From a virus: a stretch of DNA of 43,118 nt. A program made the translations under genes and the position numbers. The DNA lies in the IMG/VR virus record IMGVR_UViG_3300045988_069349; one strand, given 5' to 3'. The notes beneath the pieces were generated by a model. The model worked only from the letters and a program-made list of their open reading frames with translations. It was not told the origin of the DNA and ran no database searches. Positions 34,393 to 43,118 of the stretch are shown here, piece after piece (the first letter of the stretch is position 1; the number at the start of each line of letters is the position of its first letter).

Positions 34393-36432
34393 TCATTCGA
34401 GGATAAAGGAAATATCAATCGGGAGCCAAGTATTCGCCACCGCATCCGCCCACGCGCTTCCGTTCCTGTACCGCGCAAAGCGCACCAATCCGGCGGCTGT
34501 GACGGTGCAAAGCCAGACGGCAGCCCCGCTTCCCTGACATACGAAATTCCATTGATTTTGTGGCCTATATCCGGCGGGGAGCGTCGTGATGGTATAAGTC
34601 GTCGTTCCGCCCGTCAATGTGGCTTTCGGCGTGACCACGCCCTTCACATGCACCACGCCGCCGCGCCGACGATATTGCAGCGTATTTTCCGCGTTTCCGG
34701 CGTAGGTTTCGAAGTCGCTTGTCAGCGTTGCCTTTTTCCAGCCCGTATCAAAGCCGCTCAACTCTGTCCACGAATGCCATTTGGATGAGTAGTATGTCCT
34801 TTGCCATAGCTCAAAGCCTGTTTCCGAGCAGCGGACGGCAAACTGGATGCGTTGCCCATCCGCGCCCATGTCAAGGACGATGATGCAACCGGACGCGCCG
34901 GATGTGATCGGACAGTTCTTCATTGTCGCCAGTGTCGCCGAACTGAAGCTGTAAAAGCCGCTTTCCCGCAGGTTGTCCAGATCAACGCCGGAATCCATCG
35001 CTTTTGCGCCTCCCGGCGTTTCACCATGACGGAAAAGCGCCGGAAGCCCGAACTCGACATATCCGGCCAGCTCGGAAACCTTGCCAAACGCAAGCCCCCG
35101 GCCTGACGAATGAAAATCAATCAACGTGAAGGCCGTCGGGATTTCCACCGTTTTCCGCACGGTGGCGAAGAAGTCTGTCACAGATAGCCGCACATCATAG
35201 GCAGAATCAACGTCCATCACGTCGTCGGTGATAAGTGAACCTGACGCGATATAGTCGCTCCCGCTCTTGAGCGGAATCCACGTTGTGGCCGATTTGGCTT
35301 TGTATTCCAGCGTATACTTGGCCGTATTTTTGCTTGAGACAGGCGAAATGACGAGGGAAAAGCCGATTTTGCCGTGTGTCCCCTCGTAGTTTTCCGTTCC
35401 GTCCTCCAGCGTTCGGACGGCCACAAGCGTCTTGATGAGCGGCGCGGAATAGGCGACGACCACAAGCGTCTTGGTTGTCTTCGCCGTCCGTCCCCGGCTG
35501 TCCGTCACCGTCACCGTGACCGTCTTGGTGCCGCTTGAAAGTGTCCCGGTCGTAGGTGATGCGCCGCCGTAGGTCTTGCCGTCCACGACCGTCTTATAGG
35601 CCGTGATGGTTGAGCCGTAAGCGCCAGCCGCCTTGATGGTGATTTTGACCTTTGATTTGCTCTGAACGAATACGCCGAATTGCGCCGCCAGCCCCGCAAC
35701 CGCCTCCGCCATGCTGACATCCGAAATCGTCGGCACGACGGCAGCGGGAACGCTGGCCTTGAAAGATACCGTCTTTGTGCCGATTAAGGCGCTTCCGTTG
35801 TATGTCTTGCATGTGATGGTGCATGTGCCGGATGTGCCGGAAGGGATTTGATTGGCCAGCGTAAGAGGAACCGTCCACGCCTTGCTTGTTCCCAAGCCCG
35901 TCCCGATTGTCCCAGAGGCTTTTCCGAAGGTATATGTCAGCGTGTGGTCAAAGCTGCCGGACGCTCGTGGCATGTTAATCGTGATGGAGCTGCCCATGTT
36001 GACGCTTGACGCGGAAAGCGTGGGCGTTGTCGCCCTCGGAATGGTGTCAAATGTGCCGCTCCCGCTTGCCGTCACGTCGCCGTAGTATGTGCCGCCCAGC
36101 GTGACCTTGATGCCGATGGTCGAGGCAAAGGTGCAAGTCTTCGAGCCGTTCGCGTTGTGAGCAACCGTAACCGTCTTGGTATAGATTGTTTTGACCTGAT
36201 TGCCGGAGAGGGCAGCGGAAAACGTGAAGCTGTACTTCGTGCCGTTGATCGTCACCGTGCCGCTCTTGCTGGCAGATGAATTGATTGTGTAGCTGCTGCC
36301 CTTGGAAACAAGCTGCACCTGTACCGTGACGGATGACGTGTTATTGGCGACGGACTGGCTGCCGACCTTCCAAACGAGGCGCATTTCATAGCCAGTCCGT
36401 ATGGCTTTGGTGATTGTCCCGGATGCCGCCAT
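34393..36432 (-). CDS. Receptor-binding tail protein, set 2 (DUF859-like N-terminus, Ig-like middle, pyocin-knob-like C-terminus)
   Basis: MAASGTITKAIRTGYEMRLVWKVGSQSVANNTSSVTVQVQLVS... (DUF859-type). C-terminal DLDNLRESGFYSFSS...NCPITSGASGCIIVLD...WQRTYYSSKWHSWTEL (knob-type). Confidence 0.7.
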   Translation of the reverse strand: MAASGTITKAIRTGYEMRLVWKVGSQSVANNTSSVTVQVQLVSKGSSYTINSSASKSGTVTINGTKYSFTFSAALSGNQVKTIYTKTVTVAHNANGSKTCTFASTIGIKVTLGGTYYGDVTASGSGTFDTIPRATTPTLSASSVNMGSSITINMPRASGSFDHTLTYTFGKASGTIGTGLGTSKAWTVPLTLANQIPSGTSGTCTITCKTYNGSALIGTKTVSFKASVPAAVVPTISDVSMAEAVAGLAAQFGVFVQSKSKVKITIKAAGAYGSTITAYKTVVDGKTYGGASPTTGTLSSGTKTVTVTVTDSRGRTAKTTKTLVVVAYSAPLIKTLVAVRTLEDGTENYEGTHGKIGFSLVISPVSSKNTAKYTLEYKAKSATTWIPLKSGSDYIASGSLITDDVMDVDSAYDVRLSVTDFFATVRKTVEIPTAFTLIDFHSSGRGLAFGKVSELAGYVEFGLPALFRHGETPGGAKAMDSGVDLDNLRESGFYSFSSATLATMKNCPITSGASGCIIVLDMGADGQRIQFAVRCSETGFELWQRTYYSSKWHSWTELSGFDTGWKKATLTSDFETYAGNAENTLQYRRRGGVVHVKGVVTPKATLTGGTTTYTITTLPAGYRPQNQWNFVCQGSGAAVWLCTVTAAGLVRFARYRNGSAWADAVANTWLPIDISFILE

Positions 36433-36444
36433 ACTCTCACCGCC

Positions 36445-41468: not shown

Positions 41469-41625
41469 GGTCAATCGCCTCCTTCAGCTCTTTGATGGTT
41501 TTCCGGGTGATCTGGATAGCCGCGAGCAGGTTGTTCAGGTTCTGCTCGCCTTTGGTTTCCACTGATTCAAGCAGCAGCCCGACGTTTCCGAGCTGCATAA
41601 TGATATTTTCCACGTCCATTTTCAT
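41434..41625 (-). CDS. Hypothetical small helical protein
   Basis: MKMDVENIIMQLGNVGLLLESVETKGEQNLNNLLAAIQITRKTIKELKEAI. The start shares its A with the Tal-1 stop (TGATG). Confidence 0.45.
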   Translation of the reverse strand: MKMDVENIIMQLGNVGLLLESVETKGEQNLNNLLAAIQITRKTIKELKEAIDHENRNEQGENV

Positions 41626-43118
41626 CACTCCCAAGATGCATAGTAGATTGTATCTGTGCTTACGCCGGAACACTCGTAAATCTCAATAGATACGTCGGAA
41701 GGGGATTTCACATAGCGTCTCGTTCTACTCACGCTTGTCACAACTTTTTTTTGCGTCAAGGACAGCCCATACCCGGCGAGTTTCAAACTGTTGCATTCAA
41801 AGTTGGTTGCGCTTAATGCCCGCACATAGAGCGTGTCGGAAATGCCGCTTTCAAAATTAGAAAATTCCGTTTTAAGCTGGTTGGCCGTGACATATCCGTT
41901 CAGCGTGATCTTGTCCGCCTTCAGGGCGATTTCGCTGTTCAGGCCGTCGATTGTCACTTCCGCGCTTGATACGCGTTCTCCAAGGCTGTCCACAATACTC
42001 GCATCGGCCTTGAGGGTGATTGCGGCGTTTGCGCCGTCGATATTGACCTCCGCGCTGGTTACGCGGGTTTCCAGATCATCAACGAGCGTCCTGTCTGCCT
42101 TTAAGTCAATCGTTGCGGCGATGCCGTCAAGGCGGATTTCCGCGTTGCTTACTCGGCCAGTCAGCTCATTTTGGTCATGCGTCAATAGGTTAATCTGCGC
42201 GGTTTTCTCATTCGCTTCGATGATTGCCCAACGCAATTTCGCTTCGGTTTTCTTTTGGCTGCCACCGCCGCCGCCCCTTCGCCCCGTTCCTGTGACGGTT
42301 TCCACGGCCTCATCCGTCTTGACGTAGTTTTCCGTCAGTGTCCTCGGCGGCTCGCCGAAGGTGTACGTCGTGTTTTCCGGGTTCAGCAGGTCGATTTCCA
42401 TTTGGGCGCAGGTCATCGTCAAATCCATGCCGTGCGGGTTGGATAGGATATGCACCTTGTCGCCGATGCGGATGCTTGCCGCCGTGCTATCGATAAAGTG
42501 CATATCAACCGCCGTCAGCGTGATCGTTCGCAGCAAAGCGCCCGTTTTCAGAAACTCCCGCGCCTTGGCCAGCAGGGCAGATGGGTCTTCTTCGTTGCTC
42601 CACGTCTGCGCACGCCAGATTTTGCCGTACAGGCTCACCCCGTCATCGTCTTGGATGTACTCAACACCGCCGTTGACCGAAGCGATAGAAACCGGGTCTT
42701 GCTCGTTTCCGTCGTCGTCCACACTGGAAGCGCCGAGGGGCAAAAGCACCGTAAAGATATCCGCCGCGTCGAGCTTGTCTTTCAGCTCCAGCAAATTGAC
42801 GCTGAAGCTGATTTCCCGCGCATCCGCGCCGCTCGGCTCTTTCAGCCACTCCAGATAGGTCACGCCGCCCGCCGTCCGTGTCGCCAGATAGCCGCCGTAT
42901 GCGCCAAGCAAGCGGTTTTCAATCGCGTCTGACGTGCTTTGATAGCTGTCGTCCTCGGCCTCCATCGTCAAGGCTTGATCGACCGCCGTAATATTGCCGA
43001 CCGTGAAGCGCTTTTCCGCGTCCACCTGTCCATTGTGGCCGCTCACTAGCTCCCGGAAAAATGCCTGTACATTGCCGTTATAGCTGTACGGTTTTTTCAG
43101 GCTGTCGAGCAAAAAAGA
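41625..43118 (-). CDS. Tail tip protein Tal-1, C-terminal segment (N-terminus is at 375..1 across the circular junction; about 589 aa in total)
   Basis: ORF 41625..43112. ...KRFTVGNITAV...ASVNGGVEYIQDDDGVSLYG...SNPHGMDL are blocks shared with Tal-2. A Gly5 linker follows, then 30-aa repeats. Confidence 0.85.
   Translation of the reverse strand, partial: SFLLDSLKKPYSYNGNVQAFFRELVSGHNGQVDAEKRFTVGNITAVDQALTMEAEDDSYQSTSDAIENRLLGAYGGYLATRTAGGVTYLEWLKEPSGADAREISFSVNLLELKDKLDAADIFTVLLPLGASSVDDDGNEQDPVSIASVNGGVEYIQDDDGVSLYGKIWRAQTWSNEEDPSALLAKAREFLKTGALLRTITLTAVDMHFIDSTAASIRIGDKVHILSNPHGMDLTMTCAQMEIDLLNPENTTYTFGEPPRTLTENYVKTDEAVETVTGTGRRGGGGGSQKKTEAKLRWAIIEANEKTAQINLLTHDQNELTGRVSNAEIRLDGIAATIDLKADRTLVDDLETRVTSAEVNIDGANAAITLKADASIVDSLGERVSSAEVTIDGLNSEIALKADKITLNGYVTANQLKTEFSNFESGISDTLYVRALSATNFECNSLKLAGYGLSLTQKKVVTSVSRTRRYVKSPSDVSIEIYECSGVSTDTIYYASWE
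41898..42167 (-). repeat. Three 30-aa coding repeats in the Tal-1 C-terminal shaft
   Basis: GRVSNAEIRLDGIAATIDLKADRTLVDDLE / TRVTSAEVNIDGANAAITLKADASIVDSLG / ERVSSAEVTIDGLNSEIALKADKITLNG. Confidence 0.8.
43020..43118. repeat. Terminal overlap, copy 2
   Basis: Identical to 1-99, consistent with a circular assembly overlap. Confidence 0.9.

Follow-up and report, generated by a model that had tools for sequence, protein, structure and literature searches.

The stretch of DNA analyzed here (the window) is a viral sequence of 43,118 bases, IMG/VR record IMGVR_UViG_3300045988_069349, whose minus strand encodes two sets of tail-tip genes, each with its own tape measure protein (TMP), Dit and Tal. 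The window is a temperate siphophage with a circular genome of 43,019 bp. The last 99 bp (43020-43118) are a copy of positions 1-99, and the genome was therefore closed at that length; the phage was read as temperate because a large serine recombinase (Resolvase and Zn_ribbon_recom domains) is encoded on the strand opposite the late genes. Among the late genes, all on the minus strand, family searches identified an SPP1-type portal, a scaffold and head-tail adaptors. The major head protein, the major tail (tube) protein and the G/T tail assembly chaperone pair are each present once; a single tube protein and a single chaperone pair had also been claimed in an earlier note on this DNA, made from the sequence alone. 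Downstream (3') of the tube gene the order is G/T, TMP-1, TMP-2, Dit-1, Tal-1, open reading frames (ORFs) of 61 and 91 amino acids (aa), a 465-aa fiber, ORFs of 117 and approximately 59 aa, Dit-2, Tal-2, a 135-aa ORF, a DUF859 protein, a holin-like ORF and a strong terminator (Table 1). The ORFs that the earlier note had placed on this strand were recovered exactly or to within a few codons. The genes from TMP-2 to the 59-aa ORF are referred to below as the inner set or cassette, and TMP-1 together with the genes from Dit-2 to the DUF859 protein as the outer set.

Both sets are complete. The Dits match phrog_33 and the Tals phrog_3558, and both Tals score above the gathering score of PF06605 (31.3 bits). 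Tal-1 and Tal-2 are 38% identical over their first 349 aa (E 4e-79), which agrees with the homology over approximately 350 aa proposed in the earlier note, and Dit-1 and Dit-2 are 43% identical over 130 aa, the ring domain (E 6e-29). From these low identities and the completeness of the gene sets it follows that the duplication is real, complete and old, as the description of two complete, anciently diverged tail-tip sets had implied. Of the motif blocks said to be shared by the two Tals, the last, which should have ended in DD, reads SVNGGADFIEDA in Tal-2. Tal-1 had been joined across the ends of the linear record; the join is correct, the gene being contiguous, an uninterrupted 589 aa, on independent and differently permuted contigs (e.g. 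L001 5738-7507; L numbers denote loci on other contigs).

Table 1. Genes of the two tail-tip sets and associated late genes (window coordinates)
Feature	Position	Strand	Evidence and remarks
TMP-1, outer (constant) set	3005..4768	-	587 aa from the first start codon; TMP PHROGs 58, 991, 1272
TMP-2, inner cassette	800..2980	-	726 aa, or 723 aa from the ATG at 2971; TMP PHROGs 1535, 58
Dit-1, 140 aa, ring domain only	375..797	-	phrog_33 "distal tail protein Dit", E 1e-13
Tal-1, 589 aa	375..1 joined to 43019..41625	-	PF06605, 52.4 bits; phrog_3558, E 5e-108
Small ORF, 61 aa	41434..41619	-	85-100% conserved in relatives and in stand-alone L082, L083, L085
Small ORF, 91 aa	41193..41468	-	47-100% conserved across relatives
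Inner-cassette fiber, 465 aa	39792..41189	-	phrog_19280 only, function unknown there
117-aa ORF, XkdW position	39396..39749	-	C-terminus resembles the corresponding 146-aa ORF of L085
CD1375-like / XkdX-like small ORF, last inner gene	39224..39403	-	59 aa by relatives' gene calls, 43 aa from 39355
Dit-2, 214 aa	38529..39173	-	phrog_33, E 4e-12; abuts Tal-2
Tal-2, 554 aa	36865..38529	-	PF06605, 51.1 bits; phrog_3558, E 1e-133; C-terminal part matches host-specificity PHROGs 588, 10693
135-aa ORF between Tal-2 and DUF859	36445..36852	-	96-100% conserved in close relatives; no family match (Pfam, PHROGs)
DUF859 tail protein, 679 aa	34393..36432	-	PF05895, E 4.8e-58; phrog_372, E 2e-107
Major tail (tube) protein	5524..6099	-	phrog_885 major tail protein, E 1.5e-55; sole copy in genome
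Tail assembly chaperone pair	4707..5461	-	G 5054-5461; T ORF 4707-5048, -1 frame; assigned by position, frames and slippery heptamer
Holin-like 75-aa ORF	34138-34365	-	phrog_1863; with the terminator closes the late operon (34107..34365)

Dit-1 has no peripheral C-terminal domain. Nearly all of its 323 homologues measure 140-141 aa, and the AlphaFold2 model (pLDDT 88.8) can be superposed on the Dits of monocin, SPP1 and TP901-1 in their N-terminal ring domains. In Foldseek the model matched best, with query TM-scores of 0.67-0.74 along its whole length, to 9j1k_K (monocin tip), 2x8k (SPP1 Dit) and 4v96 (TP901-1 Dit). That Dit-1 might be a truncated Dit was considered and rejected on the homologue lengths and the model, and it was assigned as a native ring-only Dit. 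The gene overlaps its neighbors at both ends, at the stop codon of TMP-2 and the start codon of Tal-1.

Two alternative explanations of the double set start from this protein. The first is a composite tip: every tail would contain both sets, with, for example, a Dit-1 ring stacked on Dit-2; one Tal would plug the tube, the other Tal and the fibers would be peripheral, and both TMPs would lie in one lumen, in parallel or in series. Dit-1 is essentially a bare ring, the 43% identity of the ring domains means that both could dock on the same tube, and two stacked Dit hexamers occur in one baseplate of lactococcal phage p2 (PMC7472080). The p2 double ring is the product of one gene, however, and goes with one Tal and one TMP, whereas here each set has a full TMP of its own. 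The second is that the inner cassette serves a non-virion role, either in headless tailocin-like particles or as a selfish tip element that hitch-hikes on the tube and heads and is of no benefit to the phage. The best structural match of Dit-1 is to the tip of monocin, an F-type tailocin, but the matches to the SPP1 and TP901-1 Dits are equally good.

The C-terminal ~200 aa of Tal-1 form a repeat-rich, fiber-like extension, which shares 61-67% identity with the Tals of L082, L083 and L085 (stand-alone phages). Each Tal has its own distal fiber-like extension and only one Tal trimer can close a tube, which speaks against a composite tip. The inner cassette is a mosaic. Its Tal C-terminus, both small ORFs and fiber are 60-89% identical to those of L082, L083 and L085, where they occur without the other set, but the Dit and the Tal N-terminus are not, and these phages also differ from the window in tube and TMP. 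Pfam and PHROGs searches gave no family match for the 61-aa and 117-aa ORFs. The 465-aa fiber carries Ala/Thr/Asn-rich, in-frame repeats with a 21-nt period at 40552-40761. It had been labeled BppU-like, which found no support in Pfam or PHROGs: the Pfam search for a BppU N-terminal domain (E <= 0.01) returned only a sub-threshold alanine zipper, and a PDB sequence search was null. No usable homologue was found by sequence in the PDB for Tal-1, Tal-2, the DUF859 protein or the fiber.

The head of the inner fiber is exchangeable, its C-terminal part and the downstream ORFs being swapped in L006, L013 and L079. In near-identical relatives the C-terminal head is replaced together with the two small downstream ORFs (window 39224-40300; L006 59-1148; L013 ~7724-9357), which points to active exchange of putative inner-set receptor-binding tips. 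The last of these ORFs matches phrog_1382 clearly (E 2.5e-18) and the CD1375-like family PF23792 just at threshold (27.2 bits; cut-off 27.0). No model named XkdX was matched, and the name XkdX-like is unconfirmed. Nor do the ORFs in XkdW and XkdX position strictly mark the end of a tail module, as had been supposed, another fiber gene following the pair in the stand-alone phage L085.

In the outer set, the match of the DUF859 protein to PF05895 is essentially full length (residues 13-628 on profile positions 10-619 of 626), and this protein is presumed, from position only, to be the receptor-binding protein (RBP) of that set. The inner cassette stands between TMP-1 and Dit-2; in L090, L056 and L058, which have a single set, the Dit-2-like gene lies directly 3' of the TMP.

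The two TMP genes were assigned by position as well as by family. TMP-1 follows the G/T pair, in which G matches phrog_1021 and a slippery site, T_TTT_TTC at 5088-5082, precedes the T ORF in the -1 frame, and TMP-2 begins 24 nt after TMP-1 (gap 2981-3004). In relatives TMP-1 is called as 579 aa, with a start at 4744. TMP-2 contains at least four in-frame tandem repeats of 102 nt (34 aa), rich in Trp, at approximately 1444-1813; in these repeats, as in those of the inner fiber, length change by slippage is possible. TMP-1 and TMP-2 can be aligned over the N-terminal 59 aa only (53% identity). In all double-set genomes the first and second TMPs, here TMP-A and TMP-B, share the N-terminal motif M-E/D-L/I-F-K-L-x-G-T-I-A and approximately 60 aa, with local scores over the first 110 residues of 82-331 within genomes vs 32 for shuffled sequences.

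The C-terminal ends of the TMPs differ in distribution. The last 110 aa of TMP-1 are 49-72% identical in all double-set relatives with an outer Tal at least 59% identical to Tal-2, and 31-35% identical in most of the more distant L035-L042 subgroup. When the C-terminal 120 residues were clustered, TMP-2-like sequences formed a separate cluster of 12 unique members, all 12 of them followed directly by a Dit-1-like gene. TMP-1 and all other first TMPs clustered with the TMPs encoded immediately before Dit-2-like genes in L090, L091, L056, L058 and L093, which have a single set. This broad TMP-1-type family also takes in the TMP-Bs of two other types of inner cassette (types ii and iii, below). 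A swapped TMP order, giving an interleaved rather than a nested layout, had been entertained for L035-L042 and L088 and was dropped when the clustering revealed the breadth of the family. In L029 and L034 the TMP-B is a hybrid, with a TMP-A-like N-terminal half and a TMP-2-like C-terminus. The shared N-terminal segment and the hybrids fit a two-part TMP, with an N-terminus for the shared backbone and a C-terminus for the tip. From the C-terminal clusters we infer that TMP-1 is paired with Dit-2 and Tal-2, and TMP-2 with Dit-1 and Tal-1. In siphophage tip structures (e.g. T5, lambda, 80alpha) the TMP C-terminus lies inside the Dit-Tal chamber.

Tail length is set by TMP length, at approximately 0.15 nm per residue. 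Within double-set genomes the two lengths are unmatched, TMP-A having ~578 or ~667 aa and TMP-B 534-807 aa, which is consistent with independent tails and counts against a composite tip.

Selection on both sets was estimated as the ratio of nonsynonymous to synonymous substitution rates (dN/dS), by the Nei-Gojobori method, against close relatives (dS 0.05-0.3) and distant ones (dS above 1, saturating). Values of 0-0.33 were obtained across the genes of both sets, similar to those of the tube and TMP-1 genes. By gene, the inner values were 0.17-0.55 for the 61-aa ORF, 0.13-0.33 for the 91-aa ORF, 0.26 for the fiber and 0.15 for the 117-aa ORF, and the outer 135-aa ORF gave 0-0.06. All ORFs are intact. 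Neither set is therefore dead, and the earlier suggestion of one dead set was rejected.

No genetic switch was found between the sets. Promoter-like and terminator-like sites in the tail region were no commoner than in shuffled sequence, and none between the sets exceeded chance. The only strong terminators are hairpins at 5511-5487, after the tube gene, and at 34132-34107, after the holin-like gene (11-bp stem with 8 GC pairs, and a T-run). Besides the 24-nt junction of the TMP genes there is one of 50 nt from the XkdX-like stop codon to the Dit-2 ATG (39174-39223), exactly the gap first reported, and it carries a good Shine-Dalgarno sequence for Dit-2; both Dit genes have ordinary ribosome-binding sites or translational coupling. 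The genome contains no inverted repeat of 40 nt or more, no direct repeat resembling the template and variable repeats of diversity-generating retroelements (DGRs) and no invertible segment between the sets. The large serine recombinase was the only recombinase among the proteins scanned, which for reverse transcriptase did not include every ORF. With no switch and ordinary junctions, the two sets are most probably co-transcribed and co-expressed.

That the sets are always co-transcribed, with no visible switch, would also suit a composite tip. Another alternative is conditional use, in which the modules are functional alternatives and one of them is assembled per host or condition under post-transcriptional control (e.g. 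translation, a host factor or TMP proteolysis), so that a burst is monomorphic and the choice differs between hosts. This explanation draws on the same evidence for two independent modules, and the reverse-strand signal-peptide ORF that lies between the TMP genes in many relatives could bring regulatory signals. In the window, however, only 24 nt lie there, no promoter, terminator or switch was detected, and both Dit genes have the ordinary ribosome-binding sites or coupling described above. Conditional use is considered improbable, and somewhat more so than a composite tip.

The arrangement recurs in independent assemblies. The exact Dit-2 protein was found on 19 public contigs, and every contig that is long enough has the same gene order, with the TMP-1/TMP-2 junction, the XkdX-like/Dit-2 junction and an unbroken Tal-1, from different samples and assemblers. 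Searches of IMG/VR with Tal-2 and Tal-1 yielded 76 loci, onto which the window proteins and custom family profiles were mapped. The same layout, of two tandem TMPs, a Dit-Tal pair, and a second Dit-Tal pair with DUF859, is present in all relatives that share ~51% identity or more with Tal-2 in the outer Tal and have enough upstream sequence on the contig. More than 30 further distinct contigs, from relatives in IMG/VR, GenBank and metagenome-assembled genomes (MAGs) at NCBI, carry tandem TMPs together with two Dit-Tal pairs. When the Dit-1 family was sampled independently of Tal-2, five of five contexts had tandem TMPs, and a second Dit was present on all four contigs extending far enough.

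GenBank phages were searched as well. Megablast against 50,697 phage records found no match to either half of the tail region. A tblastn search with the Tal N-domain matched 132 records, once each, because second Tals of other families fall below the threshold (E <= 1e-8). One clade member with the same layout was found by the Tal search, the unannotated metagenomic record MT835521.1.

A chimeric assembly, which the earlier note had named as the finding that would overturn its proposal, is contradicted by this recurrence. Short-read metagenome assemblies are involved throughout, and one 89-kb contig (L014, L080) looks like two genomes joined beside Dit-2, so that mis-assembly of two co-occurring strains deserved consideration, as did a decaying remnant set. 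The junctions are nevertheless identical across samples and assemblers, relatives of 50-75% identity have the same architecture with different junction sequences, and the intact ORFs under purifying selection contradict decay. Artefact or decay is scarcely credible as an explanation.

In the 89-kb contig (IMG/VR 3300045988_072179, 89,074 bp; L014 ~9258-9311, L080), a complete L082-like genome seems to be fused to a complete genome like that of the window, with the join where the XkdX-like gene ends (3'), shortly before Dit-2. In no other case do Dit-2, Tal-2 and DUF859 stand behind a single TMP. The contig is probably a figure-eight misjoin via the shared fiber/XkdX region, or possibly a real recombinant, and was left out as evidence.

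Comparison across the clade revealed that the outer set (Dit-2, Tal-2, DUF859 and the TMP-1 C-terminus) is constant and that the inner block is replaced as a unit. The block always opens with its own TMP, followed by Dit and Tal, and is of at least three unrelated types: (i) the window type, in which the Dit has 140 aa and the Tal resembles Tal-1; (ii) a 221-aa Dit, a Tal and its own DUF859 protein; and (iii) a Dit of ~275 aa with an SPP1_Dit C-domain, a Sipho_Gp37-type Tal and collagen or other fibers. In L049, L101, L103 and L033 it is reduced to TMP-Dit-Tal without a separate fiber, which is exactly the minimal tail-initiation complex. This block replacement and the TMP C-terminal families uphold the proposal that a TMP-2-to-XkdX cassette is nested between TMP-1 and Dit-2. 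Relatives lacking one set, a comparison that the earlier note had called for, were also found. The outer-type tip stands alone in L090, a prophage on a 128-kb Bacillota MAG contig (tube, TMP, Dit, Tal, DUF859), and in L055-L058 and L091. A short Dit is the only Dit in L067, L097 and L098.

These observations bear on both of the alternatives that start from Dit-1. In a composite tip, contacts between the sets are hard to square with an inner cassette that changes among at least three unrelated families beside an unchanged outer set, or with the finding that other phages carry outer-type tips, short Dits or pieces of the window's inner cassette by themselves. A composite tip is the main rival explanation and is regarded as unlikely. 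A non-virion role would suit a mobile, swappable block bounded by moron-type insertions, but the slot is filled throughout a deeply diverged clade (outer Tal 51-98% identical) under strong purifying selection, and with the head-proximal parts shared nothing bars such tails from heads. It is very unlikely.

Between TMP-A and TMP-B, a reverse-strand ORF of 118-308 aa was observed in L029, L030, L043, L049, L051-L053, L081, L084, L099-L101, L103 and L104. Where read, its N-terminus resembles a signal peptide or that of a lipoprotein (MKKLL...). The ORF has the look of a moron inserted at a module boundary, possibly for superinfection exclusion, and is absent from the window.

We lean, on balance, towards two independent, co-expressed tail-initiation modules that share one tube and head and thereby give dimorphic virions. 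The outer module would comprise TMP-1, Dit-2, Tal-2, the 135-aa protein and the DUF859 RBP, and the inner module TMP-2, Dit-1, Tal-1, two small proteins, the fiber and two small fiber-associated proteins. Both would be transcribed together in one late operon. Each TMP, through its tip-specific C-terminus, would form an initiator complex together with the Dit hexamer and Tal trimer of its own set, and both TMPs, through their shared N-terminal segment, would use the single G/GT pair and the single tube protein for tail polymerization. Both kinds of tail would then join the same heads, and one infected cell would release two types of virion differing in tip, in receptor specificity and probably in tail length, the predicted tails being ~88 nm (587 aa) and ~109 nm (726 aa). 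The inner module would act as an exchangeable slot for unrelated TMP-Dit-Tal(-RBP) cassettes, with the outer module unchanged. Of the outcomes raised in the earlier note, two alternative tips thus appear favored over a stacked double baseplate by the modular swapping, the private TMPs and their unmatched lengths. The wider proposal, that in a widespread clade of temperate gut siphophages two initiators compete for one pool of tube, chaperones and heads, with dimorphic virions and an inner slot swapped horizontally together with its own TMP, is evenly poised between holding and failing.

Several points weigh against two independent modules. The sets must not cross-assemble, which is unproven, especially where inner and outer proteins are homologous at 30-43% identity. 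Genome-specific co-variation of the TMP N-termini was not found, the TMP-A of the same genome usually not being the best match of TMP-B. The clean pairing of TMP C-terminus with tip is limited to the window-type cassette. Two tail types would halve the yield of each, a cost that needs ecological justification. All of the evidence consists of genome sequence assembled from short-read metagenomes.

A member of the Clostridia is the probable host, as judged from the closest single-set prophage, which lies in a Bacillota MAG, and from Tal relatives in Evtepia and Oscillospiraceae phages.

Other features of the genome were noted outside the tail region. A 280-aa endolysin-like protein with CHAP and LysM domains is encoded at 10064-10906 (minus strand), between the genes for a Mu-F-like minor head protein and the scaffold. 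It lies ~19 kb around the circle from the holin-like ORF at 34138-34365, which has no adjoining lysin gene; the arrangement recurs in L100-L103, where a protein with Amidase_2 or CHAP plus LysM is encoded upstream of the scaffold. A 122-aa ORF at 7866-8234 (minus strand), between the major head and head-tail adaptor genes, matches the endonuclease VII-like phrog_3281 and may be a homing-type nuclease insertion. On the opposite strand, between the holin-like gene and the serine recombinase, an ORF at 33400-34101 (plus strand) has no family match and differs in near-identical genomes, with 226 aa in L001 (15073-15753) vs 343 aa in L003 (13751-14782); it may be a moron expressed in lysogeny.

Siphophage tail assembly is understood in terms of one TMP-Dit-Tal initiator and one tail length per phage, host range being varied through RBPs or fibers. 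If two independent modules are indeed used, host-range bet hedging would here be hard-wired and without a switch, distinct from multi-RBP tips, fiber inversion and DGRs. One tube, chaperone and head system would be able to serve orthogonal tips, the TMP would be an adaptor in two parts, its N-terminus specific to the backbone and its C-terminus to the tip, and the unit of horizontal exchange would extend beyond fibers to whole tips. The clade offers a natural system for the rules of TMP-tip pairing, the tolerance of the Dit-tube interface and hedging by mixed virions, and the inner slot suggests a design for engineered phages with two host ranges. Host-prediction and annotation pipelines built on the assumption of one TMP, one Dit and one Tal in each phage will misrepresent these abundant gut phages.

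Full-text literature searches turned up no account of a phage with two TMP-Dit-Tal sets, consistent with the earlier view that no described siphovirus architecture matches. They returned only chaperone pairs, the double Dit ring of p2 and the dual-RBP phages of the lactococcal 936 group, which carry several RBPs on one tip (PMC6315561). Each cassette resembles the canonical initiator of siphophages of Gram-positive bacteria (SPP1 gp18/gp19.1/gp21, TP901-1, 80alpha) in its order of TMP, Dit, Tal and RBP or fibers, and in its folds and families, with a Dit ring similar to those of SPP1 and TP901-1 and both Tals in PF06605. Described phages have one such set, whereas here there are two, each with a TMP, in one operon with a single tube, G/GT pair and head module. 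As in p2 (Skunavirus), two Dit hexamers could be present per particle here, and a second ring that acts mainly through its N-terminal ring domain is comparable to the ring-only Dit-1. Both p2 rings are the product of one gene, however, with one Tal and one TMP, in contrast to the duplicate genes found here for Dit (43% identity), Tal and TMP.

Several RBPs are also found in K1-5/SP6-like phages, which have two tailspikes, and in CBA120 and PhiK64-1. Multi-RBP phages likewise have two host-recognition devices per genome, presumably to broaden or hedge host range, but their extra RBPs are mounted on a single Dit/Tal/TMP tip, whereas here the whole initiator, including the length-determining TMP, is duplicated. 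Tail fibers are switched by inversion of the Mu G-segment and the P1 C-segment and by the DGR of Bordetella phage BPP-1. These systems also obtain alternative tip specificities from one genome as bet hedging, but they vary one fiber gene, by inversion or mutagenic retrohoming, whereas here both alternatives are hard-wired and, most probably, co-transcribed. Each cassette by itself is canonical; what departs from the canon is that two of them are paired behind one tube, an arrangement kept across a sizeable clade of gut phages.

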